A DNA stretch of 64,000 nt, taken from positions 704,001 through 768,000 of the forward strand of contig CAXXXD010000003.1 in assembly GCA_963663385.2 (NCBI GenBank), written 5' to 3'. Each line of letters begins with the position of its first letter. Positions within the stretch are counted from its first letter, which is position 1. The notes beneath the pieces are model-generated. The model saw nothing but the letters and a program-made list of their open reading frames with translations, had not been told where the DNA came from and ran no database searches. The translations under genes were made by a program, and so were the position numbers. The DNA is from Oceanispirochaeta sp. Lineage in GTDB: Bacteria; Spirochaetota; Spirochaetia; DSM-2461. Positions 22,998 through 43,711 of the stretch are shown piece by piece.

Positions 22998-23103
22998 TGC
23001 GGGCTGCCTCCGGGCAGTACGATTAGGTCTATTCCCCGGTGTCCGGAAACTTCTCCTTTTGTTTCCGGGCATCAGCTTTTAAAATAAATTCCTCTAACCG
23101 CGG

Positions 23104-23128
23104 CCGCCTCTGTCAGGGGCGGTTTTTT
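23104..23128 (+). terminator. Intrinsic terminator after adhE
   Basis: CCGCCTCT-gtc-AGGGGCGG followed by T6. Confidence 0.75.
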
Positions 23129-23519
23129 ATTTATAAATCCTTTTGCCGGCAAATGCCCTGCGGGCCCGGGCTCTTTCGGGCTGCGGCTGCCGCCTTCGGT
23201 ATTTGCCTGGGCAAATACAGGCTATGCCTCCCTGTCGATCCCTATTTGGGGTGGTTATTATAATCAGAAATGAGTTTTGTGTTGTCTGATTTTGCTGTGT
23301 TGATTATGTAACGTTTTATTTTGTAAGAAGTTATGGGCGGTGCTAACTAAAGTTAGTTGTGTATTTTCTTTTAAAAAATGACTTTTTACTGTAAAATGAA
23401 TCGATTTTGTACTTTTTGCAGGAGTGATTCTGTGTTTGGGTGTTTATTTATTGGTTATGTGGATATTATTGCAGGGTATTTGCGGATAATGTGGAATACC
23501 TTGTTCAAGAGATAATAAG

Positions 23520-23912
23520 TTACATCGACACATTTTGTACTTCTGGTTCTTTCATAACTGCCAGACGATTTTATAGTTTTTAGGCATATGATCCGAGTTG
23601 ATTGATGCTCTCACTACACTGATTATCAATCTTTGACGCCGGTTGCGGCTGGCAGTAGTAGAAATGAGGGCATTCGCCTTCACCTACGATAGCTTTTATA
23701 TTATTGCCTGATATGGCATCGGTGATTTTCAAAATGATGCTGACGTAACATTAAAATGATCCTGTCGTCGCTATAGATCACGATTCTTGCAAGGTAAGTC
23801 CTTTAATGAGAAATTGTTCTTTTCAAAAATATAATGACTGTTTAAAATAAAGATGCAAGAATAGCGCCTATACCTGTCCTTCGGCCAGGCCGCTCCGCAG
23901 GATATTTTGGTG
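23520..23912 (+). repeat. ORF-less cassette, copy 1 (diverged)
   Basis: Starts GTTACAT (23519), R'' ACGTAAC 23743-23749; body homologous to copies 2-4. Confidence 0.85.
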
Positions 23913-23918
23913 TTATAT
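23743..23918 (+). other. attC site, long family (176 bp)
   Basis: ACGTAAC-attaa-AATGATCCTGTCG ... CGCAGGATATT-ttggt-GTTATAT; extra G and T on the L'' arm. Confidence 0.9.
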
Positions 23919-24305
23919 CGAACACATTTTGTACTTCTGGTTCTTTCATAATTGCCAGATGATTTAGTAGGTTTTAGGGTTTTGATACGGGTTGATTGAT
24001 GCTCACACTACACTGATTATCAATCTTTGACGCCGGTTGCGGCTGGCAGAAGTGAAAATAAGGGAATTCGCCTTCACCTACGTTTATTAAGATATTCTTG
24101 CCTGATATGGCATCGGTGATTTACAAAATGCTGTAGACATAACAAGAAAATGATACTGTCGTCGCTACAGATCACATTTCTTGCAGAGATACAGAATGCT
24201 GATAAATAGTTCTTTCTTAAAAACAAATTACTGTTTAAAATAAGTCTGCAAGAAAAGCGCCTGTACCTGTCCTTCGGCCAGGCCGCTCCGCAGCATATTT
24301 TGGCG
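23913..24305 (+). repeat. ORF-less cassette, copy 2
   Basis: Tandem 393-bp repeat of copy 1; near-identical to copies 3 and 4. Confidence 0.9.
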
Positions 24306-24311
24306 TTATAT
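24137..24311 (+). other. attC site, long family (175 bp)
   Basis: ACATAAC-aagaa-AATGATAC ... GCATATT-ttggc-GTTATAT. Confidence 0.9.
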
Positions 24312-24347
24312 TGACAAAATATCAGTCAATAGAGAATGGAGGAAAAA

Positions 24348-25013
24348 ATGAAAAGAAAAATGGTAGAGTTATTGTTACTAGTGCTGGCAATTTCAGCTTT
24401 TGCAGAAAATTACCCTGGTACATCAATTGATTTAGATAACATAAAAGCTAATAATTCTAGGGATATAGTGGCAATCTTAAACGGAAATATTTTCTATGTT
24501 TTTTATAATGATCTAAAGACATATGAAACTGAATTACAGCAAAAGAATTTTTTAGAAACAGATGAGGCTCAAGTTTATCAAGAGAAAATTGAGGAATTAA
24601 AAAATATTATTCAAACTCAGGGAATTACAACTGTTTATGAGCAAAGGAAAGCACAATTTTCCGATTATGATATTGAGAATAGAGGTTTTTGGGTTACAAT
24701 CGGAGACTCATATAATGATGGAGATAATATTTCACTAAATAATTTCCTATGTGATAAAGTAGAAATTTATACAAAAAAAAGTGCTATAACTTATTATATG
24801 CTTTTTATCCCTGTCCCCGAAGATGTTGCAGGCAAGATTGAGCATAATAATAATATTATCTTAAAACAAGAAATGAAAATATCCGATATTGGAATATTCA
24901 CCGTTGTTGCAAATGGTTGGAAATTTACTGACCCCCTTCCTATTGCTGAGACATTAAAGTTTATAATTTATGATAAAGCTACAAATGAAGTAATAACTGA
25001 AGTTCAATACTAA
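24348..25013 (+). CDS. Cassette hypothetical exported protein
   Basis: GGAGG RBS before ATG 24348; signal peptide ending SAFA; no recognisable family. Confidence 0.7.
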   Translation: MKRKMVELLLLVLAISAFAENYPGTSIDLDNIKANNSRDIVAILNGNIFYVFYNDLKTYETELQQKNFLETDEAQVYQEKIEELKNIIQTQGITTVYEQRKAQFSDYDIENRGFWVTIGDSYNDGDNISLNNFLCDKVEIYTKKSAITYYMLFIPVPEDVAGKIEHNNNIILKQEMKISDIGIFTVVANGWKFTDPLPIAETLKFIIYDKATNEVITEVQY

Positions 25014-25027
25014 ATTAGGACATTTGT

Positions 25028-25555
25028 ATGAAGGATAATTCGTTAGAACCAAAGAAGATTGATAGTGTTGAGAAGTTGAAAAAAATAGATCTCGCGATTT
25101 GGGCCAAATCAAAGGGTTTTGACCCAATCGTTGCACATCCGAATGGTATTGGAAATGATTATAAATACCAATACCGATTGATGTTATTTTATAAATACTA
25201 TTTATCTGGTAAGAATCAAATTTCAATTGAGAATGCTAGATCATTTGTAAAATATCTTGATGAAAATTCATATTCTGGCCGATTTATTGAGTATTTTATT
25301 CGAGAATATCGAAGAATATTAGATGACTTGATAGAAGAGATTACTGGAATTGGAAGATACTGGACAGGAACCTTTATCAGAATAAGTGAAACAGCGAGTG
25401 CCGAGGAAATTTTAATTCAGCAGTGTCAGATTCTTAGAAATGAATTATTCGATAAAGATTGTTTTAGATATCTCAATGATGATAACTATTTTAAATTTAT
25501 AGAAGAAAGAGAAATGCTTTATCAGAAAGAAGAGTTTTGGGAAAAAGAAGCTTGA
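25028..25555 (+). CDS. Cassette hypothetical protein
   Basis: 175-aa ORF, AGGA RBS, operonic with neighbours. Confidence 0.65.
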   Translation: MKDNSLEPKKIDSVEKLKKIDLAIWAKSKGFDPIVAHPNGIGNDYKYQYRLMLFYKYYLSGKNQISIENARSFVKYLDENSYSGRFIEYFIREYRRILDDLIEEITGIGRYWTGTFIRISETASAEEILIQQCQILRNELFDKDCFRYLNDDNYFKFIEEREMLYQKEEFWEKEA

Positions 25556-25580
25556 CTATTTAAATATGAAGGAATAGAAG

Positions 25581-26573
25581 ATGGAGAATGAAAATCTTGC
25601 ATTATTCAAATATTGTCCGGAATCTAATATAAAGTATATTTTCAAGGATAAAACATTAAGATTTACACAACCATCACAATTGAACGATCCTTTAGAATTA
25701 CGTCCGTTACTCGAATTTGATAAAGCCTGTAAGAATAATTCTTATGAAATTAACGGAATTAAAATGCCATCTATGAATAAATGGTACCAGTTAATTTTAG
25801 TTGAACAAGTTGTAAATAGGTATGGGATTTTATCACTTACAAGTAATTGTAAATCGATCAATATGTGGAATTATTATGCAAATGGACATAAAGGATTCAT
25901 AATAAAATTTAAGAATGATTTTCACATGAATAATTTCATAAGATCGGAAAGAGAAGAGTTCAAGTTAAAAAAAGTTGACTATGTTTCTAAATATACATTA
26001 GATATAGGGAAAATTAGTAATAATGCTGGTTACTTCACAGAAAATGATTATATCGATGACGCTGTATTCAAAAAAATAGAAATTTGGTCTTACGAATGTG
26101 AATATCGTCTAATAAAACCATTAACTGATTTTCCGAATTATCAGGAACCTGAAAACCTTGATTTTAATGATTCAAATATATATTCATGTGAACTGGATTT
26201 CAAAATTATTGATTCTATTATTTTTGGTTCTTTAATGAGCAAAGAGGATAAACAAAAAATATATAATGAAATAAAAAATTATGACATATCAATTTTTCAG
26301 GCATTATTGATCAAAGGAAGAATATCAAATGATGCTGTCGGTTTATCACCAATTGAGATTGTGAAAATCACTGATTTTGACAATATTAAAAACTATCAGC
26401 CAAAAAATTTTGTATTTGATGATTTTCCTTTTGATGAAAAAGTTATTAAAATTGATACAATTGATAAATTACCATATTACAATGAAACATATAAACAGCA
26501 AATTGAACAATTATTTAATGCAAAGCAAAGGCAATATAACAAAGAAATGGAGCAGTCAAATCCTTTGTCATGA
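25581..26573 (+). CDS. DUF2971-like protein
   Basis: LFKY, QLNDPLE, SLT...MWNYYANGHKGF, K..WSYECEYR; stop codon lies inside attC. Confidence 0.8.
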   Translation: MENENLALFKYCPESNIKYIFKDKTLRFTQPSQLNDPLELRPLLEFDKACKNNSYEINGIKMPSMNKWYQLILVEQVVNRYGILSLTSNCKSINMWNYYANGHKGFIIKFKNDFHMNNFIRSEREEFKLKKVDYVSKYTLDIGKISNNAGYFTENDYIDDAVFKKIEIWSYECEYRLIKPLTDFPNYQEPENLDFNDSNIYSCELDFKIIDSIIFGSLMSKEDKQKIYNEIKNYDISIFQALLIKGRISNDAVGLSPIEIVKITDFDNIKNYQPKNFVFDDFPFDEKVIKIDTIDKLPYYNETYKQQIEQLFNAKQRQYNKEMEQSNPLS

Positions 26574-26640
26574 TTAATGCTTACGCAAGAATACATGCCA
26601 ACCCTTCGGGACGGCTTTGCAGCTCATTTCGGCGTTATAT
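26534..26640 (+). other. attC site (107 bp)
   Basis: ATATAAC-aaaga-AATGGAGC ... GCTCATT-tcggc-GTTATAT; CAATATAAC complements cassette start GTTATATTG (24305). Confidence 0.9.
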
Positions 26641-26864
26641 CGAACACATTTTGTACTTCTGGTTCTTTCATAATTGCCTGATGATTTAGTAGGTTTTAGG
26701 GTTTTGATACGGGTTGATTGATGCTCACACTACACTGATTATCAATCTTTGACGCCGGTTGCGGCTGGCAGAAGTGGAAATAAGGGCATTCGCCTTCACC
26801 TACGTTTATTAAGATATTCTTGCCTGATATGGCATCGGTGATTTACAAAATGCTGTAGACATAA

Positions 26865-28853
26865 ATCGGGTAGCCAGAGGCTTTTGACCTCCAGCCCCCA
26901 CACCACCCTGCAAGCGGGTCCGCACAGGGCGGTTCACTCCATGGAGCAAACGAAACTATAATTTGATCATGTGTAGCCCTGGATTTTACACCAGAGGGCC
27001 TTAATATTGATCAATCCTTGCTCTTCCAACCATTTATTGGACATAGCGGCATTGGTTGCATAGCCTTTTGACAGATGCCAGTAGGACTTACTACTTGCTC
27101 CTGTCATAATGGCAAAATCTTTCGGAATACCCAGCTCCATCAGTTTCCTGACTTTTGTTCTGGGGTAACGCCACTGTTTCCAGTAGCACATACGGATTCT
27201 TCTTCTCAGCCATTCATCAATTGATTGTAGAGGTCTGTAATATTGGGAAATACCATAATAGTTCATCCACCCCCGGATATACTCGTTAAGTTTCCGGAAT
27301 CGATATTCCATTGATACCCCCCAAGACCGTCTTGTCAAATGCTTTAACTGATATTGAAACTCCCGAAAGGATGATTCAGTCCATCGGATTTTCTTACCCT
27401 TGAAAGTGAATCCCAGAAAACTGCATTCGGAGATTTTACACACCTTGCTTTTCTTCTGGTTTACAACCAATTTTAACCTGCGACTGAGATAATCACTTAT
27501 TTCAGTCAATATAGCTTTTCCATCACACAGGCGTTTTGATACAATTAATGCATCATCTGCGTAACGTGCAAAGCACAGGTTTCTCCGTTCCAACTCCTTA
27601 TCGAAATTATCAAGAAGGATATTGGAAAGTAGAGGCGACAATGGCCCTCCTTGAGGAGTCCCGATTTCAGTAGGGATTTTAATCCCATCCTTGTCCATAA
27701 TACCGGCTCTCAGGTAGCGGCCAATCAATTTCAGGACTGATTTGTCCCGGACTTTCTTAGCCACACAATGCATCAGAATATCGTGATTTACCGTATCAAA
27801 GAACTTTTCCAAGTCCAGATCAACTGCATACTTGTATCCCGATTTAACATAGGTATTTACCTGTCGTACTGCTCCGTGAGCCGATCTTCCCGGCCTGAAT
27901 CCAAAACTGCTTTCCGAAAAATCCGAATCGAATAGAGGATTCAAAACCTGTGAAATAGCCTGTTGGATAACCCTGTCTAAAATAGTGGGAATACCCAGCA
28001 TTCGCATACCTCCGGATCTCTTGGGGATTTCCACCCTGAGCACCGGAGAGGGTACATAGTACCCCAAAAGCAAAGCTTGCTTGATTTTACTCCATCTTCT
28101 GCGTAGATATTCCGGAAATTTCTCAATAGTCATGCCATTGACTCCCGGACTGCCGCCATTGCGTTTGACCTGTTTCCAGGCCTTACGCATGTTTTCAGAT
28201 GATAAAATCAAATCCATCATAGAATCGTTCAAGGCTGGTTTCTCCATAATTCGCCAAAAGTTATTTCGGCCAGTGCTAAAATTGTTCCTTTGAGAACCAT
28301 AAGGCTCCTCCTTGTGAAATGTTCAGGCCTTCACCGTGAACCGGACATTACTCCGGGCGTTGGTTACTATGCCTTCTGCTGACTTCTGCCTGCTAATCAA
28401 CGAGATTGCTCCCGTTGATGCTATACCGTGCTTTTAAACCTGTGACGACTTATTTGTACTCAAGATAATCTTGCTCATTTCCAGAGTGTCACCCTCTGAA
28501 AAGCCGGGGATTGGTTTTCCGGTTCCCTACCGGATTCTCAGTTTAAAAGAACACATTACCGCCCCGCAGACAGATCTCCCCGAATAAGACTGTACACTGT
28601 CCCCGGACAACCCTGTGATTTACCCTATTCCATACCCACGGGGCATCGTCATCATTGGCTGACTCGCCTCTGGAACTGAGCCTTCTATCACATTCTTGTA
28701 CATGGGCTCCCGGTTTTGCATTCCGGCTTCCTCCAGACATTCCCTCGCGGAAATGCCCTTGCCTTCAGCTAACAGTTGGTATAGCATGTTCACTATACGT
28801 GGGCACCTGTAGAGGACTTTTACCTCATTAGCGTACAGCCATGTCGGGCGTAC
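26865..28853 (-). mobile_element. Group IIC-attC intron, full length (1989 nt)
   Basis: 5' end GTACGCCCGACATGG, 3' end CTACCCGAT, short domain V GAACCGCCCTGTGCGGACCCGCTTGCAGGGTGGTGTG with CGC triad; inserted antisense in attC R''; removal restores ACATAACAAG. Confidence 0.93.
26967..28247 (-). CDS. ltrA: Group II intron reverse transcriptase/maturase, no endonuclease domain
   Basis: RMLGIPT, SFGFRPGRS, DLEKFFD, GTPQGGPLSP, RYADD, X domain; 426 aa. Confidence 0.95.
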   Translation of the reverse strand: MEKPALNDSMMDLILSSENMRKAWKQVKRNGGSPGVNGMTIEKFPEYLRRRWSKIKQALLLGYYVPSPVLRVEIPKRSGGMRMLGIPTILDRVIQQAISQVLNPLFDSDFSESSFGFRPGRSAHGAVRQVNTYVKSGYKYAVDLDLEKFFDTVNHDILMHCVAKKVRDKSVLKLIGRYLRAGIMDKDGIKIPTEIGTPQGGPLSPLLSNILLDNFDKELERRNLCFARYADDALIVSKRLCDGKAILTEISDYLSRRLKLVVNQKKSKVCKISECSFLGFTFKGKKIRWTESSFREFQYQLKHLTRRSWGVSMEYRFRKLNEYIRGWMNYYGISQYYRPLQSIDEWLRRRIRMCYWKQWRYPRTKVRKLMELGIPKDFAIMTGASSKSYWHLSKGYATNAAMSNKWLEEQGLINIKALWCKIQGYT

Positions 28854-29047
28854 CAAGAAAATGATACTGTCGTCGCTACAGATCACATTTCTTGCAGAGA
28901 TGCAGAATGCTGATAAATAGTTCTTTCTTAAAAACAAATTACTGTTTAAAATAAGTCTGCAAGAAAAGTGCCTGTACCTGTCCTTCGGCCAGGCCGCTCC
29001 GCAGTATATTTTGGCGTTATGTAGAACTAAGGTGTTAAAAGGTAAAT

Positions 29048-29653
29048 ATGAAAAAAGTAACGATTATAATAATTATATTGATAACACAAAGCATCTTTTC
29101 ACAATCTCAAATCAGTAGCATACGAGAATATTTAAAAGCAAATAGTTATATGCCTATTATTGAAGTACCTTTAGAATCAACAAAACTATATATATACGCT
29201 AAAGAGTCTCAGAAAAGCCAGATAAATAGTGATTATTTCTTAAACGGTGATGTATACCTTGTCAATATTGATAATGATGAAAGAATTAGATCTCATGTCA
29301 TATGCGAACTTGCTAGTAGTGCTGTTGAAGTATTCACCAATAATAAGGAATTCATAATAAATCCACGTAGTAGAAGCGAGATACGAGGATCAAGAGAAAT
29401 AATATATTATGATGAAAGATTCAATAAATTTACAATTTTCATTTCAGAATGGATGTTTCTAAGTGGCTTTAAAATTATTGATGAGTATATTGTCTGTAGC
29501 CTAGGAAACCATCCAAAATATAAGTATTTAGTGATAAATAAATATACTGGAGAAGAAATACCTGTAGATCAATTAAGCACAACCTTAAGAAGTAGTTATT
29601 CACTAGCAATACGTAATGGAAATAATTGGAATTTATATGATTACCATAAATAG
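29048..29653 (+). CDS. Cassette hypothetical exported protein
   Basis: AAGG RBS; signal peptide MKKVTIIIIILITQSIFS. Confidence 0.7.
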   Translation: MKKVTIIIIILITQSIFSQSQISSIREYLKANSYMPIIEVPLESTKLYIYAKESQKSQINSDYFLNGDVYLVNIDNDERIRSHVICELASSAVEVFTNNKEFIINPRSRSEIRGSREIIYYDERFNKFTIFISEWMFLSGFKIIDEYIVCSLGNHPKYKYLVINKYTGEEIPVDQLSTTLRSSYSLAIRNGNNWNLYDYHK

Positions 29654-29676
29654 TAAAAATCTTTATCAAATGATAA

Positions 29677-30366
29677 GTGGGTAATATGAATATTGAAAAG
29701 AAGAGAATAATTTATTGTATAATTCTATTATTTATAAACTTTGTAAATATTTATTCTGAAAATATAAAAGGACTAAATATTGAGATTTTTGAATTATTAA
29801 ACGGTGTATGGGATACAAATAACTCGAAACCTAGATCTGTAGATGAAACATATAGTTGGGGAAAAGATAATTCATATAGAGATGGCATTATAATTGATTT
29901 CGGATATGCAAGAATTGAGTTCAATGGTTTAAGTTATGGCTATACAATTGAGGACGTAAATCAACTGAATGATAATATCATCGAATTTTCAGGTTATTTC
30001 ACTGTATATGATGCAAGAATTGAAAAAATTGTTAATTCGCCTGCAACAATACATATAAAGACTAATTCACTAAGTGAAATGGAATTCATTGAAGCTGAAG
30101 CTGGCGAGTATAATTTTCAGTTAAGATTCGGAGATGCGCCAAATATCAGAATCCATGAAATTGAATTCGTGGACAAAGAAATCATTATTTCTGAAGAAAC
30201 AATATTAATGACACTGAAAAGGGATGAGTATATATACTCTGCTTCAATTGAAAATACTGTAAAAGCACATGTTATAAAAAGTTATGATTCAAAATTTTTT
30301 GTGTTAACAGAAAATGGCGATATTGGATGGATAAATCAGGATAATGTACATTTCTCTAACGAATAG
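29677..30366 (+). CDS. Cassette hypothetical exported protein (possible C-terminal SH3-like segment)
   Basis: Signal-like N-terminus; C-terminal VLTENGDIGWI. Confidence 0.6.
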   Translation: MGNMNIEKKRIIYCIILLFINFVNIYSENIKGLNIEIFELLNGVWDTNNSKPRSVDETYSWGKDNSYRDGIIIDFGYARIEFNGLSYGYTIEDVNQLNDNIIEFSGYFTVYDARIEKIVNSPATIHIKTNSLSEMEFIEAEAGEYNFQLRFGDAPNIRIHEIEFVDKEIIISEETILMTLKRDEYIYSASIENTVKAHVIKSYDSKFFVLTENGDIGWINQDNVHFSNE

Positions 30367-30377
30367 AGAATAGTACT

Positions 30378-30550
30378 ACATAACAATAAAATGATGCAGT
30401 CGAAGCTATAGATCACATTTCTTGCTGATATTGCTTCAATCAAGAATTATTGCTTCTCAAAAAGAGAATAGCTGTTTAGAATGAATGCAAGAAAAGCGCC
30501 TATACCTGTCCTTCGGCCAGGCCGCTTCGCAGCATATTTTGGCGTTGAGA
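30378..30550 (+). other. attC site, long family (173 bp), followed by IS1182 at GTT
   Basis: ACATAAC-aataa-AATGATGC ... GCATATT-ttggc-GTT; CTACATAAC complements cassette start GTTATGTAG. Confidence 0.9.
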
Positions 30551-30624
30551 CTGTAGAAAAAGGTAAGCGGTAATTCTCTCCATCTTGCGTGATTTCGAAA
30601 TGATTATATACTCCATGAAAAATC

Positions 30625-30921
30625 ATGGAGGAACCTAATATGACCAACTGGAATTGGCCTGAATTAATCGAAGAACAAAAACAGAGCGGGAAAACAATTT
30701 CTGAGTTCTGCGCAGATAAAGGAGTTCACTATACATCTTTCTACAAGAATCGAAAAAAATTAAAGAAAAGCAGTTTTATTGAAATCAAACAGAAAGCCCC
30801 GGTATTACAGCCACAAAACCCCACAATGATACTCAGATACAAGGATTTCTCATTGGATCTGGCATCAGGTTATAACAGGCAATCCCTGATAGATCTTCTG
30901 AAGATTCTGAGAGAGTTGTAA
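30625..30921 (+). CDS. tnpA: IS66 TnpA accessory protein
   Basis: HTH QSGKTISEFC; first ORF of IS66. Confidence 0.85.
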   Translation: MEEPNMTNWNWPELIEEQKQSGKTISEFCADKGVHYTSFYKNRKKLKKSSFIEIKQKAPVLQPQNPTMILRYKDFSLDLASGYNRQSLIDLLKILREL

Positions 30922-31265
30922 TGTTTGTTGACCTGAACGAATACCGGATCTTTCTGAGACCCGGCACGACAGACTTAAGAAAAGCGATCAACGGATTATC
31001 TCTGTTTATCCAGAATGAAATGAATCATGATTTATTCGCCAAATCGCTATTCCTCTTTTGTAACCGGCAGAGAAAACTTCTGAAAATTGTCTACTGGGAT
31101 AATACCGGTTTTTGTCTCTGGCAGAAGAGACTGGAAGAGAACAGATATCCCTGGCCGGAAACAGATGAAGATGCTAAAGAGATCAGCATGGATGAATTGA
31201 AAATGCTCCTGACGGGAATAGACTTTTTCAAAGCGCATAAAAAATTATCATATTCCCGTATTTAG
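30921..31265 (+). CDS. tnpB: IS66 TnpB accessory protein
   Basis: TDLRKAINGL, LFLFCNR, KIVYWD.TGFCLWQKRLE. Confidence 0.92.
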   Translation: MFVDLNEYRIFLRPGTTDLRKAINGLSLFIQNEMNHDLFAKSLFLFCNRQRKLLKIVYWDNTGFCLWQKRLEENRYPWPETDEDAKEISMDELKMLLTGIDFFKAHKKLSYSRI

Positions 31266-31304
31266 AGATTTTATAATTATAGAAACTTTGATAGAATTCC
31301 CCGT

Positions 31305-32867
31305 ATGGAGAATGAAGAACAGCATTTAAGAGAACAACTTGATGCACAAAAAATAGAAATTGCTGAACTGAAAAGACTTAATGCCATTCTCCAGGAGCAA
31401 GTAGCAAAACTGAACCTCCTGCACTTTGGAACAAAATCAGAGAAGATAACTGCCGAAGATAAGAAACAAGCTTCTCTCTTCAATGAAGCGGAAGATAGTG
31501 CTTTTGCTCAGAATGATGAAGAGCAGGAGAAAAATGTTATTGAAACGGTTGAGGTCGGTTCCTACAAGAAAAATATTAAAAAATCCGGCCGGAAACCTCT
31601 GCCGGCAGATCTGCCGAGAGAGATCGTGGAATATGATATTCCGGATAAAGATAAGATCTGTGCCTGCGGAACAGAAAAGACCTGTATCGGTGAAGATGTT
31701 TCCGAGAGAGCAAAAATTATTCCGTCAAAAGTCGTTGTTATTCAGGAACGTAGAAAAAAGTACTCCTGCAAGAATTGTGAAGGGACGACTCTTGATGAAG
31801 CTGCTGTACAGACCGCAGAAGGAGCAAAGCATCTGGTCGCGGGCAGTATTGCCGATGAAAGCCTGCTCGCTTGGAGTATAAGCGAAAAGTTTGAGTTCGC
31901 TCTTCCTTTCTACAGGCAATCAAAACGGTTAAACCAGATAGGCATACCGATCCCCCGGGCGACATTGAGCAATCTTACGATAAAATCGGCAACGGCATGT
32001 AAGCCTCTATATGATTTGCTGAAAGAAAACATTAAATCCGGTTCCATTATTAATGCCGATGAGACGAGAGTTCAGGTTCTAAAGGAACCGAAACGAAAAG
32101 CTTCAGATAAATCATGGATGTGGGTCTTTCTCAGAGGAGATCCCGATAAAAAATGTGTCATATTTCAGTATGAGCAAGGCCGATCCCATGCAATTCCGTT
32201 GGATTTCTTGGAAAATTACTCTGGCTGGGTTCAAACTGATGATTTTGAGGCCTACCATACTGCCCGAAAAAAAGTTGATGGAGATATAAAGCATGTCTTA
32301 TGCTGGGCCCATGCCAGAAGAAAGTTCTTCCAATATTGGGAATCAACCAAGAAAAAAGATGCAGAAGCAAAGCAAATTCTCGACCTGATAAAGGATCTGT
32401 TTGAACTGGAATCATTACGGGATAATTATTCGCTAAAAGGGTTTCATAAACAGCGACAAAATAGAGCAGAACCGATACTAGATAAGTTACAGAAAAAACT
32501 GACGAAGCTTTATCCTCAAGTACCTCCTTCTTTAGAGTTCGGTAAGGCGATGAAGTATACATTGAGCAACTGGGAGCAGTTGGTTCTATATCTGAAAAAT
32601 CCTGTTTTGACTCCTTCGAACAATAGCGCTGAAAATGCAATCAGACCCTTCGTAATCGGGAGAAAAAACTGGCTTTTTGCCGGAAGCCCGAAAGGTGCTG
32701 AATCATCGGCAATTCTGTACAGTCTCGTTGAATCTGCGAAGATGAACAATCTTCCAGTTTATGCTTACTTGTACTTTATCTTCCGGGAATTGCCCTGCTG
32801 TGAAAAACAGAGTGATTATGAAAAATTACTTCCCTATAATTTAACTGCTGAAGATATTGCAATCTGA
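31305..32867 (+). CDS. tnpC: IS66 TnpC DDE transposase
   Basis: FGTKSEK, ADET, CWAHARRKF, NNSAENAIR, GRKNWLF. Confidence 0.95.
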   Translation: MENEEQHLREQLDAQKIEIAELKRLNAILQEQVAKLNLLHFGTKSEKITAEDKKQASLFNEAEDSAFAQNDEEQEKNVIETVEVGSYKKNIKKSGRKPLPADLPREIVEYDIPDKDKICACGTEKTCIGEDVSERAKIIPSKVVVIQERRKKYSCKNCEGTTLDEAAVQTAEGAKHLVAGSIADESLLAWSISEKFEFALPFYRQSKRLNQIGIPIPRATLSNLTIKSATACKPLYDLLKENIKSGSIINADETRVQVLKEPKRKASDKSWMWVFLRGDPDKKCVIFQYEQGRSHAIPLDFLENYSGWVQTDDFEAYHTARKKVDGDIKHVLCWAHARRKFFQYWESTKKKDAEAKQILDLIKDLFELESLRDNYSLKGFHKQRQNRAEPILDKLQKKLTKLYPQVPPSLEFGKAMKYTLSNWEQLVLYLKNPVLTPSNNSAENAIRPFVIGRKNWLFAGSPKGAESSAILYSLVESAKMNNLPVYAYLYFIFRELPCCEKQSDYEKLLPYNLTAEDIAI

Positions 32868-32985
32868 TCCATCAGTCCTAAAATGCTGTCAATGTGGGAA
32901 GAATTACCGCTTACAGAAAAAGTCACCTTTTCTACAGCTCTCAGCCAAAACATGGTAAAATTCTATAAAAGGGAGGTTTTCAATA

Positions 32986-34530
32986 ATGGCCAGATATAAA
33001 GAGTATTCTTATGCCCAAACAATGATGATCCCCGTAAGCTTTGAAAAACAGATTTTACCAGGAACATTCGAATATACATTATGCCATCTGATAGACAATC
33101 AAATTGACATTGATATGTCAGTTTTTGAAAACCACTACGAAAATGATGAAACCGGAGCTCCCGCCTACGACCCTGCCATCCTCTTAAAAATAGTCCTTTA
33201 CGCCTATTCAAAAGGAATAAACAGCAGCAGAAAAATTGAACAATTATGTCGGGAAAACATAGTCTGTATGGCACTGGCCGCCGATTCCAGACCCCACTTT
33301 ACAACAATCGCCGACTTTATCTCTTCTCGTCACAAAGAGTGCCAATCCCTCTTTACCATGATACTCTCTGTTTGTTACTCCCAGGGACTCATTGGAAAAA
33401 ACATGTTTGCCATAGACGGCTGTAAAATCTCCTCCAACTGCTCTAAGGAATGGAGCGGAACCAAAGCTGAACTATTTGCCAAAACAAAAAAAATAGAGAA
33501 ATCCGTAAACTACCTGATTGAGAAACACAAAAGCACGGATATTAAATGGGATGATAAGAATCAGCGGAAAAAAGAAAAGCAGGCCATCAAAAAGCTAAAG
33601 ACTAAAACAGATAAAATCTACAAATGGCTTGATACCCATTATGACCGTTTCGGGAGTCAGGATCAGCCCATTAAAAGCAATATAGTTGATAACGAAAGCG
33701 CTAAAATGTCCACCGGACATGGCGTTATACAGGGATATAATGGCATTGCTGCAGTAGACGACAAGCATCAATTAATTATATTTGCCGATACATACGGTGA
33801 TGTAAACGAATCAGGACACCTAACAGAGATACTTGAGGGGATTGATAAGAGCTGCAAAGAATCTCACATAGATGACCACATCTATAATAATGTCACCATA
33901 ACTGCTGATACAGGCTTTCATAATAAAAAGAACATGCAGATGATCTGCGAGAAGAAGATAGATGCCTATATCCCGGACAATCAGTTCAGAAAAAGGCACG
34001 TAGCCTTTCAGGATGCCGGCAGATACAAAAAGAAAGTCGCCAACTGGAAACCGGAAAAAGGAAAACACTATTTTAGTCCGGAAGACTTTTATATGGATAC
34101 GGCAACCAACCAGCTTATCTGCCCTGCCGGTCATGCCATGTGGCTGAAATCCCCCAACTTCAGAAGCAATGACGGTCGGTATACCGGAAAGTCCTATCAA
34201 GGGCATATACGCAATTGTCGTGACTGTAAACTTCGTTCAAAATGTATAAGAAAGGAAACGACAAAGGCCCGTCAGGTTGCCATACTGAAGGAAGTGCCGG
34301 ATGGAAAAGGGAGCAATCCCATGGCCGGTATGAAGGAGAAAATTGATACGCCCTATGGACGATCAGTTTATGCAAAACGGATGAGTACGGTAGAACCTGT
34401 ATTCGGACATATTGCCGGAATGAAAAAGCTGAATCGCTTTACTTTACGGGGTACGGAAAAGGTCCGGACACAGTGGTTGTTGTACTGTATGGTGCATAAT
34501 ATCGGGAAAATCCAGCAGTATAGTGCGTAG
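32986..34530 (+). CDS. IS1182-family transposase
   Basis: GAPAYDP, SSRKIE, PHFTTIADF, AIDG, QGYN, ADTGF, VEPVFGHI. Confidence 0.92.
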   Translation: MARYKEYSYAQTMMIPVSFEKQILPGTFEYTLCHLIDNQIDIDMSVFENHYENDETGAPAYDPAILLKIVLYAYSKGINSSRKIEQLCRENIVCMALAADSRPHFTTIADFISSRHKECQSLFTMILSVCYSQGLIGKNMFAIDGCKISSNCSKEWSGTKAELFAKTKKIEKSVNYLIEKHKSTDIKWDDKNQRKKEKQAIKKLKTKTDKIYKWLDTHYDRFGSQDQPIKSNIVDNESAKMSTGHGVIQGYNGIAAVDDKHQLIIFADTYGDVNESGHLTEILEGIDKSCKESHIDDHIYNNVTITADTGFHNKKNMQMICEKKIDAYIPDNQFRKRHVAFQDAGRYKKKVANWKPEKGKHYFSPEDFYMDTATNQLICPAGHAMWLKSPNFRSNDGRYTGKSYQGHIRNCRDCKLRSKCIRKETTKARQVAILKEVPDGKGSNPMAGMKEKIDTPYGRSVYAKRMSTVEPVFGHIAGMKKLNRFTLRGTEKVRTQWLLYCMVHNIGKIQQYSA

Positions 34531-34731
34531 GAATACGGAAAAGTGCTAAAGAATGGGTATAGCGTTGGATAAAACCAATTGTAGTTGAATATAGCCGGTT
34601 TTAATCGGATTTAATATTGAAATCAAAGAGATGAATGATTTTTCCAAATGAGTGCTTTCAGGGGAGCCTTGAAAATACCCAGTTTGAGTTTTTCTACAGT
34701 CTCGTTATACAACAAGAATCAAGGATCACAT

Positions 34732-36057
34732 ATGATATCTTCGGAATTCAAGAATAATTTTCTCAAAAGGATTACTAGAATTGATTCAATAAATGTTACA
34801 GCTACACAATGTATTGAAAAAGATCCTAATACGATAAATGGAACAGCAACTATCTTTTTTGAGAATGAAATTTTAAAAATAGTTTTTTATCCAACAAATG
34901 ATGAATTAGATTTTTTCTACCCTCCATATGAAATTGGAGCAATAATAAAAAAAGAATATTATTATAAAATTACTTTCAGCGACAAAAATGGAAAATTATG
35001 GGAAACAGATCGATTTCTGCCAAAAAGAACAATTTCTTTACCAAAAAATGAAGTTATTTGGAATTGTTCTATTAGATCGATAAAAACAATATTCTCAATG
35101 CAGGATGTGGGTGCTGCAAAAAAGTTAAATTATTTGACTATATCAGTTAAAAATAATTTAGAAATTCCAATTAATGACTACTATTGTCAAAAATGTTTAA
35201 CCGATAATTTTACATTTACAGATAATAATGTTGGAATTTGGCATATAAGGGAAGAAAATGAAAATTTCAAAATAATGAATTTAAATGGAAGCACAATAAT
35301 TAAGTTCGAAACAAATGATTTATTTCCTCAAAAGACAATAGCATCTTTACTTGGTACTATATCCTTTATGTGGGGAGAAAAAATTGAATATGAATATATT
35401 GAATATCTATATGATGATAAAAAAAGTATAGAATTATTTAATTCTCCAAATGCTGATAATAATAAGCTCAATACACCACTTGTAATGAAAACTCATGAGC
35501 ATAAAGATAATTATGACAAACTTTTTTATAAGTATTTCAAATTTATTGATAATGAAGCGAATAAGTTGATATATATACAAAATCAAATTATTGCTTCTAA
35601 TAAAACAATATTGGAAGTTTATTCATTAGTACTTTCAACTTGTATCGAAAATTTGATTAAAAATCGGTTTGATATGAAAGATAAAAAGACTATCACTGAA
35701 GTTGATTCAATAATAACATTAGTCAGAAAAAAGAATATTGAGGAAAAAATAAAAAATAGAATTTTAGGATCTTTAAATTCAATACGTAAATCACCCAAAA
35801 GAGCAAAAGACATTCTAAATGAATTATTGAACAACGGAGTCATTACAAAAGAGCAAAAAAAATCATGGGACAAACTTAGAAACTCTACAGCACATGGTTC
35901 ATATGATTTTGAGGTTTCAGATCTCTTAAAATTAACCAATGATGTATTAACACTTTATTATTTGATAATCTTTGAAATTATTGGATATAAGGGAGAATAT
36001 GTAAATTACTCAAAAAAGAATTTCCCTGTAGAATTAAATTATGCAAATGATGAATAA
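34732..36057 (+). CDS. ApeA-like HEPN domain protein (putative anti-phage RNase)
   Basis: C-terminal WDKLRNSTAHG (Rx4H); AAGGA RBS before ATG 34732 (the track start 34648 lies inside IS1182). Confidence 0.7.
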   Translation: MISSEFKNNFLKRITRIDSINVTATQCIEKDPNTINGTATIFFENEILKIVFYPTNDELDFFYPPYEIGAIIKKEYYYKITFSDKNGKLWETDRFLPKRTISLPKNEVIWNCSIRSIKTIFSMQDVGAAKKLNYLTISVKNNLEIPINDYYCQKCLTDNFTFTDNNVGIWHIREENENFKIMNLNGSTIIKFETNDLFPQKTIASLLGTISFMWGEKIEYEYIEYLYDDKKSIELFNSPNADNNKLNTPLVMKTHEHKDNYDKLFYKYFKFIDNEANKLIYIQNQIIASNKTILEVYSLVLSTCIENLIKNRFDMKDKKTITEVDSIITLVRKKNIEEKIKNRILGSLNSIRKSPKRAKDILNELLNNGVITKEQKKSWDKLRNSTAHGSYDFEVSDLLKLTNDVLTLYYLIIFEIIGYKGEYVNYSKKNFPVELNYANDE

Positions 36058-36063
36058 ATTGTT

Positions 36064-36160
36064 GTATAACAAAGCCTTGCAACTGTCATGGCAAACTGTC
36101 ACAGAAAATGCGTGGCATTTTCTGCGCCAATTCACCATGCAGCTGAAGGCGACGTTATAT
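36064..36160 (+). other. attC site (97 bp)
   Basis: GTATAAC-aaagc-CTTGCAAC ... GCTGAAG-gcgac-GTTATAT; GTTGTATAAC complements cassette start GTTATACAAC. Confidence 0.9.
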
Positions 36161-36396
36161 CGAACACATTTTGTACTTCTGGTTCTTTCATAATTGCCAG
36201 ATGATTTAGTAGGTTTTAGGGTTTTGATACGGGTTGATTGATGCTCACACTACACTGATTATCAATCTTTGATGTGAGCAACGGTGCTAGAGTTCCTACA
36301 TTCAGCGGCGAAAAAGTTCCGCTTTTACTGACATAAAAAGGGGCAAATATCCTAAAGTAGAGATTACCACACCTACTACAAAAGGAACCTGCCCCT

Positions 36397-37680
36397 ATGT
36401 GTCAAAAGGAAGATCGCATGCATGTAGCACGCATCATGGCCAACGAAGGCCATACTCAAAAGTATATCGCTGAGTATCTTGGTGTCAGCGACCGGATGGT
36501 AAGGAAATACCTGAATCCGGACTTCAGAACCCGTCCCAGGAAATCCCGGGAAAGCATCCTTAAACCATTCTACCCCATAATAGAAGATACCTTGGAAAAT
36601 GATCCATACTTCAACCTCGTTTATCTTCATGAGAGACTACAAAACTCCGGTTATTCTGGAAAAATGACAATCCTACGTGACTATGCCCGGAAGTACAGGA
36701 AGAAACTGATTGAGAAAGCAGTAATCCGCTTTGAAACAGAGCCGGGAAGACAGGCCCAAGTTGACTGGAAAGAATGCGGAAAAATGGAGATTGATGGCAA
36801 ACTTCAGAAAGTATATGCATTTGTCATGCTGCTGGGATATAGTAGGATCCCGTTTGTCCTTTTCTCCTTGGATATGACCTCGCCGACATTGCTCCAAGCC
36901 CATCTGATGGCATTCCGGTTCTTCGGTGCTGTTCCGAAGGAAATTCTTTACGACAACATGAGAACAGCCTGGTACAACAACGGCGGTGTCTGGCACGTGA
37001 ACTCAAAGCTCCTGGCCTTTGCTTCAGCCTGTGGTTTCACTCCTCTTCGCTGCCAAGTTCGTAGACCGCAAACTAAGGGAAAGGTAGAGCGTTTTATCGG
37101 TTACCTGGGCCACAACTTCTTGATCCGTGAAGAAGCAATGAAGAGCCGCTCAATAAACGATTTAAACCTGACTGTCTCCAAATGGATCAAAACAGTAGTG
37201 GAACAGCAGATGAGCCAATTTAAACAGACTCGAAAAGAGAGATTTGAGTACGAAAGGCAGTTTATGAACCCTTGGAACCCTGAGGCAGCTCCAGATGTAA
37301 GGCTGGTTAAAGAACTGCTTGTCTCCAGAGAAGGGTTTATTCGTTTTGAATCAAACAAGTACAGCATTCCCGCGGACTTCATAGGACAAGTTGCGACACT
37401 GAAAGTAGATACGCTGGCAAGAACTGCCGCTATCTTCATTGATGGGGCCCCTGTTAGAACCTTCAAGCTTCTGACAAAAGGTGCGAAATTAGAATCTATC
37501 CGAAAGATTGATACCGACTCACTGGTTAAACGCTGGAAGAAAGAGAATCGCATGACAAAAAGGAATGTCGTTGCCAGTGTCCCGGAAATAAAGAATACTC
37601 CCAGGTCATCATTGATGCATACAGAGGTTGATACACGCCATCCTGAAAGCTACGACAAGCTTATGGGGGTAACAGCATGA
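36397..37680 (+). CDS. istA: IS21 transposase IstA
   Basis: RFETEPGRQAQVDW, ILYDNM, PQTKGKVER. Confidence 0.95.
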   Translation: MCQKEDRMHVARIMANEGHTQKYIAEYLGVSDRMVRKYLNPDFRTRPRKSRESILKPFYPIIEDTLENDPYFNLVYLHERLQNSGYSGKMTILRDYARKYRKKLIEKAVIRFETEPGRQAQVDWKECGKMEIDGKLQKVYAFVMLLGYSRIPFVLFSLDMTSPTLLQAHLMAFRFFGAVPKEILYDNMRTAWYNNGGVWHVNSKLLAFASACGFTPLRCQVRRPQTKGKVERFIGYLGHNFLIREEAMKSRSINDLNLTVSKWIKTVVEQQMSQFKQTRKERFEYERQFMNPWNPEAAPDVRLVKELLVSREGFIRFESNKYSIPADFIGQVATLKVDTLARTAAIFIDGAPVRTFKLLTKGAKLESIRKIDTDSLVKRWKKENRMTKRNVVASVPEIKNTPRSSLMHTEVDTRHPESYDKLMGVTA

Positions 37681-38441
37681 ATGTACTGCAGGAGACCATA
37701 GAGATCAGGATGAACGACTTAGGGCTGGAGTTTATGGCGGCGGGGTTGGAGAGCTTCCTTGAAGCTCAATCTCACACAGAAAACACTCTCTCTCAGTCAA
37801 TTGCAGACCTATTGGAACTGGAGTACGTTCCCCGTAAGGAGAGAGCTGCAAAAAGCCGTCTGAAGCTCTCTGGAATGCCATCGATCAAGCTATTAGAGGA
37901 CTTCGACCTATCCTGGTTGAAGGGAGGATTGACCGCTGCTCAACTGGCAGAGTTTTCTAGTCTGGCTTTCATTGAAAGAAAGGAAAATCTAGTACTGATG
38001 GGGCCAAGTGGATTGGGTAAAACCCATTTGATGCTAGCTCTGGCTCATAAAGCCTGTCAGAATGGTTATACTGTATGGTATACAAGCTGCATCGATCTGA
38101 TGGAGAATCTGACCCATGCCCGGGAGCAGGGGCGGTTGAAGCGACGGCTTACCTGGCTTAGAAAGCCTCATCTCATCCTTATCGATGAAGTTGGCTACGA
38201 GAACCTGACGAAAGAACAGGCCAACTTGTTTTTTCAGATTGTAAACACCCGCTATGAACAAGGCAGTATGATCATCACCACAAACAAGTCTTTCGGTCGT
38301 TGGGCTGAGATTCTGGATGATGAAGCCATTGCGACAGCGACTATAGACAGGCTCCTTCACCATGCACATGTCCTGAGTCTTAAAGGGGATTCATACCGGA
38401 TGAAAGACCGGTTGAAAATAGGGATCGTTGATCCTGTTTAA
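37677..38441 (+). CDS. istB: IS21 helper ATPase IstB
   Basis: GPSGLGKT, LIDEVGY, ITTN, IDRLLHH, GDSYR. Confidence 0.95.
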   Translation: MNVLQETIEIRMNDLGLEFMAAGLESFLEAQSHTENTLSQSIADLLELEYVPRKERAAKSRLKLSGMPSIKLLEDFDLSWLKGGLTAAQLAEFSSLAFIERKENLVLMGPSGLGKTHLMLALAHKACQNGYTVWYTSCIDLMENLTHAREQGRLKRRLTWLRKPHLILIDEVGYENLTKEQANLFFQIVNTRYEQGSMIITTNKSFGRWAEILDDEAIATATIDRLLHHAHVLSLKGDSYRMKDRLKIGIVDPV

Positions 38442-38617
38442 TTTTACCCAGAAGCGGAACTTTTAAACCGTTGAAATGAGGAACTTTTTCACCGCTGTTG
38501 ACAATCTTTGACGCCGGTTGCGGCTGGCAGAAGTGGAAATAAGGGCATTCGCCTTCACCTACGTTTATTAAGATATTCTTGCCTGATATGGCATCGGTGA
38601 TTTACAAAATGCTGTAG

Positions 38618-38792
38618 ACATAACAAGAAAATGATACTGTCGTCGCTACAGATCACATTTCTTGCAGAGATACAGTATGCTGATAAATAGTTCTTTCTTA
38701 AAAACAAATTACTGTTTAAAATAAGTCTGCAAGAAAAGCGCCTGTACCTGTCCTTCGGCCAGGCCGCTCCGCAGCATATTTTGGCGTTATAC
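38618..38792 (+). other. attC site, long family (175 bp)
   Basis: Near-identical to 24137-24311; ends GTTATAC. Confidence 0.9.
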
Positions 38793-38811: not shown

Positions 38812-40320
38812 ATGAAGATCTTACTTGATACAAATATTCTAATACATCGAGAATCAAATCGAGTCATAAATCAAGATATAGGTCTTCTTTTTTATTGGCT
38901 TGATAAAATGGGTTATGAAAAATGGATACACCCAGATTCAATAAATGAAATTGAAAATTACCAAGATCGTATTGTTGTTGAAACCATACGAGCTAAAATA
39001 CAAAATTATAGATTATTAAATACGTTATCCGAAGACAATGTTGATATTCAAAGAATAAGAAAAGAATTTGATAATAACAGAAATGATGAAATAGATACTA
39101 ACCTTTTAAAAGAAGTCCATAATCAGAGAATAGAATATTTCATTACAGAAGATAGAAAAATACATAAGAAAGCAAAAAGTTTAAATATTCATGATAAAGT
39201 TTTCACAATAGATTCTATTATCGAAAAATTAACCTTTGAAAATCCAGATCTAATCGAGTATCCAATCCCATCAATTAAGAAAATTTACTTTGGGAATATC
39301 GATGTAAATCAATCTTTCTTCGATTCATTTCGGGAGGATTATCCAGGATTTAACGAATGGTTCAATAAAAAATCGGAGAATGAAGCATATATTTCAGAAG
39401 TGAGTAATCATATTGTTGCCTTTTTGTATATCAAAATTGAAGACGAAAGAGAAAATTATAAAAATATAACTCCAAATTTCGCACCTCATAGAAGGTTGAA
39501 AATTGGAACTTTTAAGGTTATTTCTAATGGATATAAAATAGGTGAGCGATTCCTAAAAATAATCTTCGATAATGCTGTAATAAACAAAGTTGATGAAATA
39601 TATGTTACAATATTCTCAAATAGCTTAGAGAAAAAAATGTTGATAAATCTTCTATGCGATTGGTGTTTTACAGAATTTGGAAAAAAACATAATGCTTATG
39701 GAAATGAATTAGTTTTTATACGTAAGATATCTTCATTTGAAAATGGATATTGTAAAAATATTTTTCCAAAGATACCCTTAAATACAGATAAGTATATTGT
39801 CCCTATATATCCTGCATATCATACAAATCTTTTCCCTGATTCAATATTAAATAATGAAAGCCCAATAGATTTTATCGAGAATGAACCATTTAGAAATGCG
39901 ATACAAAAAGTTTATATCTCACGATCGATAAATAGAGAATTTAAAGAAAATGACCTTATTGTTTTTTATAGAACAGGTGGTTTCTATAAAAGTGTTATTA
40001 CTACAATAGGTATTGTGCATTCTGTTATTGACGATATTAGTTCGGAAAGAGACTTTTTAAGTCTTTGTAGAAAACGATCAGTGTTTACTGATAAAGAATT
40101 ATCAGAACATTGGAACTATAATCGAGGGAATAGACCTTTTATAGTAAATTTTCTATATTCATATTCTTTCCCTAAACGGATAAATATGGAAAAATTAATA
40201 AATTTAGGTATAATACCGGATAGATTCTCAGCTCCCAGAGGGTTTGAGCCATTATCAGACTCAAAATTTGACACAATACTTAAGGAGACCAATTCTGATG
40301 AACGTTATTTTATCCATTAA
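38812..40320 (+). CDS. PIN - GNAT - PUA/ASCH-like multidomain protein
   Basis: PIN: ILLDTNILI...FITEDRKI; GNAT-like: LKIGTFKV...GYKIGERFL...IYVT; PUA-like: IVPIYP.YH..LFPD, KVYIS, DLIVFYRT. Confidence 0.75.
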   Translation: MKILLDTNILIHRESNRVINQDIGLLFYWLDKMGYEKWIHPDSINEIENYQDRIVVETIRAKIQNYRLLNTLSEDNVDIQRIRKEFDNNRNDEIDTNLLKEVHNQRIEYFITEDRKIHKKAKSLNIHDKVFTIDSIIEKLTFENPDLIEYPIPSIKKIYFGNIDVNQSFFDSFREDYPGFNEWFNKKSENEAYISEVSNHIVAFLYIKIEDERENYKNITPNFAPHRRLKIGTFKVISNGYKIGERFLKIIFDNAVINKVDEIYVTIFSNSLEKKMLINLLCDWCFTEFGKKHNAYGNELVFIRKISSFENGYCKNIFPKIPLNTDKYIVPIYPAYHTNLFPDSILNNESPIDFIENEPFRNAIQKVYISRSINREFKENDLIVFYRTGGFYKSVITTIGIVHSVIDDISSERDFLSLCRKRSVFTDKELSEHWNYNRGNRPFIVNFLYSYSFPKRINMEKLINLGIIPDRFSAPRGFEPLSDSKFDTILKETNSDERYFIH

Positions 40321-40881: not shown

Positions 40882-42255
40882 ATGATGAATAATAATACGA
40901 AATATCGAATCGTTAGCCTTTTTAGTGGGTGCGGTGGCTTAGATATTCCTTTTTCAGAAGATAAATATGAATTTGCAGGAGCATATGATAATGATCCTGC
41001 TGCTATTAAATGTTTAAATCATAATCTACGATGCAATGCTAAAGTTCTAGATGTTTTAAGTGAGGACTTTACTCCAGAAATGAAGGCTGTTGGTTCCGCT
41101 GATATTGTACTTGGAGGATTTCCGTGTCAAGGTTTTTCAAAATCAGGTCCTAAAAAAGAGAATGATCCACGAAATAAATTATATAAGTCGATGCTAAATG
41201 CAGTTGATATTTTACAACCAAAAATATTCATTGCAGAAAATGTCGATGGCTTAGTTCAGAATTTCAAGGGATCTTTTGTAGAGCAAATAATAACAGATTT
41301 TAATGAAATCGGATATGATGTCGAGCATAGAATCCTAAATGCAGTAAATTATGGTGTTTCACAATATAGAAGAAGAATATTCTTTGTTGGTAAAAAAAAG
41401 GAATCAAATTCTAAATTTGATTGGCCTGAACCCAAACATGAAGGAAAAAGTAGGAATGGAGAATTCAAAACAAAATGGGATGTATTTGATCGCGATTCGT
41501 TGTTTTTTCAACATGAGATTCTACCTAGCAAAACAATAAAAGATAGTATTGAGGATTTATTAGATATAAAATCCAATATTCCTGATCATATACATTTACC
41601 AATTTCAGAGAAAGATGTTGAGATAATGAAAAATATTGGAGAAGGTAAGAAGTTATGCAATGTAAGATTTTCTAATACATCTGTATATACTTGGAACATA
41701 CCAAAAGTATTTGGAGAGATTTCTGAAAAAGAAAAAGCTATTTTGGAAATAATAGGTAAAAATCGCAGAAAAAAAATATATGGAAATATACCAAATGGTA
41801 ATCCATTATCGATTGAAGTTATTAAGGAATTATCTGGATTTGATATTTTACCAAATGAACTCAATTCTCTTATCGATAAAGGATATTTAAAATTAAAAAA
41901 TAATAAATATGACTTAAAAGGTGCAATGTTTGCTTCTGGAATATATAAAAGACCTAATTGGAATGAACCTTCACCAACTGTTCTTACTGTATTTGATAAT
42001 CCAAGGTTCTTTTTCCATCCATTAAAAAATAGACCATTCACAATCAGAGAAGCCGCTAGATTACAGTCTTTTCCTGATAGTTTTGAGTTTATTAATTCAG
42101 GTATTTCTATAAAGGATGCTTATAGATTAATTGGAAATGCTGTTCCTCCTTTACTTGCTTCTCATTTAGAAAAAGCTATTTTTAACTACTTAAATAAAGA
42201 AGGTTTTAATGAAACTAGAACTGAAAACATTAACATTAACAGAAAAGCTCAATGA
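40882..42255 (+). CDS. DNA (cytosine-5)-methyltransferase
   Basis: SLFSGCGG, GGFPCQGFS, ENV, QYRRRIF, REAARLQSFP, IGNAVPP. Confidence 0.95.
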   Translation: MMNNNTKYRIVSLFSGCGGLDIPFSEDKYEFAGAYDNDPAAIKCLNHNLRCNAKVLDVLSEDFTPEMKAVGSADIVLGGFPCQGFSKSGPKKENDPRNKLYKSMLNAVDILQPKIFIAENVDGLVQNFKGSFVEQIITDFNEIGYDVEHRILNAVNYGVSQYRRRIFFVGKKKESNSKFDWPEPKHEGKSRNGEFKTKWDVFDRDSLFFQHEILPSKTIKDSIEDLLDIKSNIPDHIHLPISEKDVEIMKNIGEGKKLCNVRFSNTSVYTWNIPKVFGEISEKEKAILEIIGKNRRKKIYGNIPNGNPLSIEVIKELSGFDILPNELNSLIDKGYLKLKNNKYDLKGAMFASGIYKRPNWNEPSPTVLTVFDNPRFFFHPLKNRPFTIREAARLQSFPDSFEFINSGISIKDAYRLIGNAVPPLLASHLEKAIFNYLNKEGFNETRTENININRKAQ

Positions 42256-43699: not shown

Positions 43700-43711
43700 A
43701 AATCCGTATAA

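Follow-up and report, generated by a model that had tools for sequence, protein, structure and literature searches.

The element described here is a repeat that occurs four times in a 64,000-nt stretch of the genome of Oceanispirochaeta sp. (contig CAXXXD010000003.1, positions 704,001 to 768,000; the whole stretch is referred to hereafter as the window). It is best read as a gene-less integron cassette, a member of a genus-restricted non-coding family that would be moved by the integron integrase like any other cassette. Cassette mobility and recent amplification are well supported. Amplification is indicated because the source genome (G000; 4 contigs, 5.3 Mb) contains seven copies, of which six are near-identical, spread over four arrays that begin with attI, because three of four attI sites are followed by the element, and because a metagenome contig carries a tandem run of related cassettes. 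Such a cassette would multiply by excision and re-insertion at attI, that is, as a self-amplifying empty cassette. Unlike mobility and amplification, the role of the short core common to all family members is not well supported. The main signal in this core is strict conservation of the primary sequence.

Cassette copies, attI sites and the integrase

As shown in Table 1, the unit is 393 nt long, measured from crossover to crossover (G/TT to G/TT), and consists of a body of about 224 nt and an attC of 169 nt. The repeats start at 23520, 23913, 26635 and 36155, and an earlier note on this DNA had placed all four correctly. The G/TT junctions lie at 23519, 23912, 24305, 26634, 29016, 36154 and 38786, and the borders of the unit abut neighbouring cassettes or attI directly, with the crossover inside the R' boxes, as in integron cassettes. 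The attC boxes are R'' ACATAAC and R' GTTATAT, and the bottom-strand DNA of the attC folded into a long hairpin in which both arms are paired across the 169-nt site. A single attC family could be aligned over 13 cassettes. The sites of this family are unusually long (about 165-175 nt for the attC of copy 2, that at 30378-30546 and homologous attCs), and an extra hairpin (CCTG..CAGG) in one attC arm is conserved.

Table 1. Positions in the window of the cassette copies, their cores, the attI-like leader and the elements inserted in the copies
Feature	Position	Strand	Remarks
attI-like leader	23341..23519	+	simple site CCTTGTTCAAGAGATAATAAG, followed by TT, ending at 23519
copy 1, diverged, intact	23520..23912	+	body 23520-23742, attC 23743-23912
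core, copy 1	23640..23685	+	conserved
copy 2, intact	23913..24305	+	body 23913-24136, long attC 24137-24305
core, copy 2	24034..24079	+	CGGYTGCGGCTGGCAG, purine-rich linker, GGAATTCGCCTTCRCCT; about 62 nt upstream of R''
copy 3, left part	26635..26864	+	body and first bases of R''; core 26756-26801
group II intron, 1989 nt	26865..28853	-	in R'' of the copy 3 attC, opposite to the cassette direction
copy 3, right part	28854..29016	+	remainder of attC
copy 4, left part	36155..36272	+	cassette positions 1-118
IS21-family element, 2231 nt	36273..38503	+	splits the copy 4 body after cassette position 118
copy 4, right part	38504..38786	+	cassette positions 111-393; core 38515-38560

Copies 1 and 2 form a tandem pair. 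Copies 2-4 and the three further genome copies differed from one another by 1-7 substitutions and copy 1 differed from the other copies at 60-63 of the 393 positions, in agreement with the view that copies 2-4 are separated by a few bases and that copy 1 is diverged. The four copies are real; to this we add that two of them are split by other mobile elements, copy 3 by an intron and copy 4 by an IS21-family element. The cassettes that come next after the element differ from copy to copy. The idea that the element is a partner of defence cassettes was not borne out, as nothing was found that links the two.

The sole integron integrase of the source genome is encoded on contig C2 (1688005-1688940; TIGR02249 score 381 bits, cut-off 265). 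Next to intI, the element is the first cassette; it starts 273 nt from the intI start and carries the intron at the same place as copy 3, and intI is divergent from the cassettes. The 24-nt attI simple site occurred four times in the genome, once on each of the contigs C1, C2, C3 (the contig of the window) and C4, and the element directly follows it at three of the four; outside the window these sites are at C1:37712, C2:1687452 and C4:1177612. The leader in the window was 71% identical to the attI region beside intI over 185 aligned positions, and no integrase was found in the window by tblastn with the genome's own IntI. The genome thus has a single complete integron, with three more arrays that begin at an attI but lack an integrase, and the element is present in every one.

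Two further features of the attI and intI region were noted. A palindrome, TGCTAACTAAAGTTAGT, that may be an operator occurs both in the window leader and in the attI region next to intI. The intI open reading frame (ORF; C2:1687729-1688955) encodes 408 aa from the first ATG, and the corresponding frames are open over 406-419 aa in most of the relatives searched. Since the match to TIGR02249 (315 positions) starts only at 1688005, about 92 codons past the first ATG, the sequence suggests that IntI has an N-terminal extension of roughly 90 aa.

In sequencing run X11 a 420-nt unitig spanned the whole cassette (window 23912-24311) and continued into the cassette's own start. It differed from copy 2 at two positions, and the adhE flank in the same run showed 11 differences in 212, a contrast that counts in favour of amplification. 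The unitig would fit either tandem copies or a circle. The four runs were compared as contigs, whose joints follow repeats and are uninformative on transcripts and excision.

The conserved core and its possible roles

The core is 46-49 nt long and contained 26 invariant columns in an alignment of 13 distinct variants, while the bodies of cassettes from different species could not be aligned outside it. The spacing from core to R'' was 59-64 nt in ten variants. The other three (L017, L024 and L063, from genomes G010 and G004) form a subfamily with an insertion of 100-115 nt between the core and attC that is made of a repeated downstream motif, about three repeats of a block, ACCCTGAT..CATGG, which is single in other members. 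A second, weaker block (TTGACC..TGGCC) was present about 46 nt before R'' in members from the genus only.

The claim that no ORF is conserved held up. In 11 family members the frame through the core took three different registers, stops stood just upstream of it in two members, and the linker within the core was 14, 15, 16 or 17 nt long, with indels that are not multiples of three. Since linker length changes in single-base steps and the members do not share a frame, the core can be taken as non-coding. A small ORF on the minus strand was also considered; it runs from an ATG through the core in several members, but its registers differ (CQPQP, LPAAA, SASRSR) and it is stopped in two, and it was rejected. 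Descent of the core from an attC was rejected as well: when the core was locally aligned with the attC of its own cassette, in both orientations, the result was no better than with shuffles. We found no likeness of the core to attC or attI sequence, and its half-sites (at most one mismatch, with the right partner) were not found elsewhere in the genome outside cassettes.

Searches by BLAST and with a covariance model built on the core detected the family in seven of the 11 genomes of the genus, the window genome included, and intI in the genus was present in 10 of the 11. No member was found in 27 genomes of other genera in the family and order (E up to 1e-4). When 401 genomes sampled across the class were scanned with a strict pattern, 5 matched, and each of these belongs to the genus. 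Exact-pattern scans added two metagenome contigs, one of which carries at least three related cassettes in tandem, in a version of 333-335 nt. With the strict pattern, 13 stretches were matched in genome contigs, one a true homologue and the others chance matches in unrelated DNA; 13 were matched in metagenome contigs, three of them true and from two contigs, the others by chance; and the one match in viral contigs was by chance. Plasmids gave no match to the element by blastn.

The element is first beside intI in three genomes (G000, G004 and G005), with IntI only 48-55% identical to that of the source genome, and is not first beside intI in three others (G002, G009 and G010). It also follows attI-like sites in G006, G009 and G010, with no intI within the 1.4-1.5 kb examined.

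In the reading that we tentatively favour, although we give it somewhat less than an even chance, the core would be a cis-acting non-coding signal in a self-amplifying cassette and would control transcription into the next cassette, so that the unit would be a promoter or leader cassette. Transcription is proposed because promoter activity has been measured in gene-less cassettes of Vibrio and Treponema (see below). Our ranking places this role above a recombination signal at the DNA level, the latter above a structured RNA, and inert filler last.

A possible source of such transcription is a sigma-70-like motif, TTCTCA-N17-TAnAAT, which occupies the same place in the central loop of the long attC in 6 of the 13 aligned attCs and points into the next cassette. 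We infer that a transcript from this motif would start in attC and run into the following cassette. The motif is not specific to the family, because an ORF-bearing cassette also has it.

Several observations weigh against this reading. No sigma-70-like promoter in copy 2, on either strand, passed a consensus scan, and the best weight-matrix scores (5-10, with a shuffled median of 8.6) did not reach the 95% level of shuffles. There is no resemblance between the core and -35 and -10 boxes, and the core linker varies in length by 3 nt. The attC-loop motif is missing from 7 of the 13 attCs, and one of its carriers is the ORF-bearing cassette at 30378-30546. The first-position counts are partly biased, as the attI-like sites of G006, G009 and G010 were found by looking upstream of the element and are not independent; when only attI sites located via intI are counted, the element is first in three of six. 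Finally, other mobile elements have disrupted four of the seven genome copies (the intron interrupts two, IS21 interrupts one, and an insertion sequence, IS, cuts the 5' end of another), so that single copies look dispensable. A sigma-70 scan of 23000-24400 returned 4 sites, with 3.9 expected, and sigma-54 and extracytoplasmic function (ECF)-type spacings did not fit in a check by eye only.

The earlier note had proposed a structured RNA as one of two options, and had listed pairings retained between copies 1 and 2. The listed stems do exist in these copies, and only 2 of the 30 body differences between them fall in the 65 stem bases (Fisher p 0.002), as expected if substitutions concentrate between stems; the test is circular, however, as the stems were picked as retained segments. 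The long-range stem is weaker in copy 2 than in copy 1 (A-T to A.A and C-G to T.G), has one pair fewer again in copy 3 and is not found in homologues. The hairpin GATTGAT/ATCAATC is lost in the closest homologue (L008), and the other listed hairpins are mostly lost in homologues and not kept in the closest one. The outer stem that extends beyond the R boxes clearly beat shuffles in the lineage of G000 and G009 and did so marginally in one metagenome lineage, but it is not family-wide: only 5 of 13 members had an energy that 11 or fewer of 200 shuffles could equal. This outer pairing, of the 5' end with bases before R'', showed compensatory changes in one metagenome variant. No Rfam family matched the element, with E up to 1 in the window and up to 5 in eight homologous loci, and no terminator was found in it. 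The whole cassette folded as RNA with a z-score of -0.65 relative to shuffles, and the bottom-strand DNA gave a modest -2.1.

RNAalifold yielded one interrupted 6-bp helix that closes the core (GGY-UGC-GGC with GCC-UUC-RCC), with one covarying pair; 2 of 500 shuffles reached its score. At the covarying Y-R position, six of 13 variants have C-G, another six have U-A and one has C.A. It is the only such pair, and the helix is broken in 3 of 15 variants (L010, L024 and L067); the G006 variant, found later, breaks two helix pairs and that of G004 breaks one. The Y variation is equally compatible with a competing hairpin (CGGY/GCUG).

The support for a structured RNA was graded as weak. We regard as unlikely the explanation in which the body is a trans-acting small RNA (sRNA) or a cis leader, possibly on the minus strand towards attI and intI, with the core as its functional hairpin; a stable trans-acting RNA is less likely than a cis-acting role. 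The conservation of the core with non-triplet indels would suit an RNA, as would the covarying pair, the double change at this pair in the sister variants L017 and L024 and the fact that the C.A case is a G.U pair on the minus strand. A precedent comes from Xanthomonas, in which an ORF-less cassette encodes an sRNA (cited in PMC6557892). In addition to the breaks in the helix and the competing hairpin, the core fold energies argue against it, since they matched those of shuffles on both strands in 25 of 26 folds (z -1.4 to +1.5; the exception was the plus strand of copy 1, -3.0), as does the lack of a detected terminator, promoter or Rfam match. Of the two options offered earlier, a structured RNA or a selfish amplifying mini-cassette, the second fits seven copies in four attI-headed arrays and the first is weakly supported.

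The strict conservation of the core without thermodynamic stability would suit recognition by a protein, and the core might act at the DNA level in recombination, either as a hairpin formed by the bottom strand or as a site that IntI or a host factor binds, located at a fixed distance from R''. The cassette would then be unusually apt for excision and re-insertion and purely selfish, which is one of the two readings given by Boucher et al. (PMC1382264) for non-coding cassettes of Vibrio. Consistent with this, the distance to R'' is kept in ten variants despite differing intervening sequence, the cassette is at attI in many arrays and also in tandem copies, and helix mismatches are fewer on the bottom strand (2 cells compared to 4). 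The insertion in three variants, on the other hand, means that the spacing is not obligatory, and the core lacks likeness to attC or attI. We consider this explanation unlikely, if a little ahead of a structured RNA. Its more specific form, in which the integron machinery reads the core and IntI is biased to excise the cassette and re-insert it at attI, would make the core a cassette-borne recombination 'driver' and would explain how an empty cassette heads many attI sites and multiplies; we judge it improbable. An accessory site of this sort is not known for integrons, no literature search having been aimed at this point.

The least probable explanation, for which we see only a slight chance, is that the body is inert filler. 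It would then be what is left of a decayed gene, or else a spacer that is alike between copies only through recent spread and gene conversion. The tolerance of insertions would agree with this, and six near-identical copies are what recent spread would produce. Nevertheless, 26 core columns are invariant between species whose flanks are beyond alignment and whose IntI are 48-55% identical, and the translations share no frame.

Other mobile elements and the surrounding array

The insert in copy 3 has the features of a group IIC-attC intron: a reverse transcriptase (RT)-maturase ORF (26967-28247; Pfam RVT_1, GIIM), ribozyme domains (Rfam domain V at 26865-26934, D1-D4 at 28326-28420 and 28589-28754) and a position in the attC bottom strand, antisense to the cassette, the assignment being made by features read in the sequence. 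The insertion point is 26864/26865, after ...CATAA within R''. Introns of this group are described as inserting into the attC bottom strand, opposite to cassette transcription (PMC3001079). A second copy of the intron (43708-46412) occupies the same kind of R'' site (after ...CGTATAA, 43707/43708) of a different cassette, and two IS66 copies interrupt it in turn (transposases 43960-45522 and 46460-48022). The plus strand carries an additional fragment of the intron (Rfam D1-D4 at 52411-52530, partial RT at 52597-53031).

The element in copy 4 encodes istA (36397-37680) and istB (37677-38441; Pfam rve, IstB_IS21), is flanked by an 8-bp target duplication, ATCTTTGA, and has the ends TGTGAGCAACGGTG and TGTCAACAGCGGTG, as in IS21. 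Insertion sequences heavily colonise the array, which also contains a third IS66 copy (orf1, TnpB_IS66 and DDE transposase; 30625-32867) and a DDE_Tnp_1 transposase (32986-34530).

The four copies are part of a low-G+C island at about 23.3-56 kb, to which ordinary chromosome of 48% G+C gives way after adhE (20349-22997), upstream of the attI-like leader. Its units are joined at G/TT crossovers and make up a cassette array of the integron type. Its cargo includes a DUF2971 protein (25581-26573), a C-5 cytosine methylase (40882-42255), an Eco57I/MmeI-like fused methylase (48711-51152) and a Fic protein (51368-52333). Several large ORFs had no Pfam match (24336-25013, 34648-36057, 38812-40320 and 42209-43699).

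Comparison with known gene-less cassettes

In chromosomal integrons, much of an array can consist of gene-less cassettes. What they do is debated, with promoters, regulators and parasites as the candidates. The present family offers a sharp handle on this debate: a short invariant core in otherwise diverged cassettes, recurrence behind attI and four attI-headed arrays with a single integrase. If the core steers recombination, cassettes can compete for the integrase, and the core would be the first accessory recombination element described within an integron cassette. If it is a promoter or leader, the idea of a 'promoter cassette' would be extended from Vibrio to spirochaetes.

The element is a new family of gene-less, paralogous, genus-restricted cassettes, a kind that is already known from Vibrio. 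In the account of Vibrio chromosomal integrons by Boucher et al. (2006, PMC1382264), paralogous families of non-coding cassettes are described and read as selfish or as useful to the integron. Like those families, the element is ORF-less, repeated within an array and conserved between species, with homologues in the genus only. The Vibrio homologues in that account are alike over their full length (>80%), whereas here only the core of 46-49 nt and parts of attC are kept. Further differences from the Vibrio families are the spirochaete-type host, the attC of about 170 nt and the arrays, most of which start at an attI and lack an integrase.

Blanco et al. (bioRxiv 10.1101/2023.11.21.568050) reported sense promoter activity for most of the gene-less Vibrio cassettes tested, from promoters that they describe as not predictable in silico. 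The superintegron cassettes in their report and the element are alike in being gene-less, placed among coding cassettes and in sense orientation. There is no sequence likeness between them, and promoter activity, measured there, is a proposal here. We are not aware of a conserved core described for those cassettes.

The closest comparison in a spirochaete is with ORF-less Treponema cassettes from an oral metagenome, some of which had promoter activity, including one in first position (Tansirichaiya et al. 2019, PMC6557892). As with Treponema TMB4 in that study, an ORF-less cassette of a spirochaete integron stands directly after attI. The Treponema intI has the same direction as the cassettes, while here the two are divergent. 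First-position cassettes without an ORF, called rare in that study, are recurrent here, the comparison being by description. With sRNA-Xcc1, the product of an ORF-less Xanthomonas cassette that the same study cites, the shared trait would be a non-coding cassette product, the element here having no Rfam match. The role proposed for the Treponema cassettes, in the expression of downstream cassettes or of intI, is of the kind that we tentatively favour for the core.

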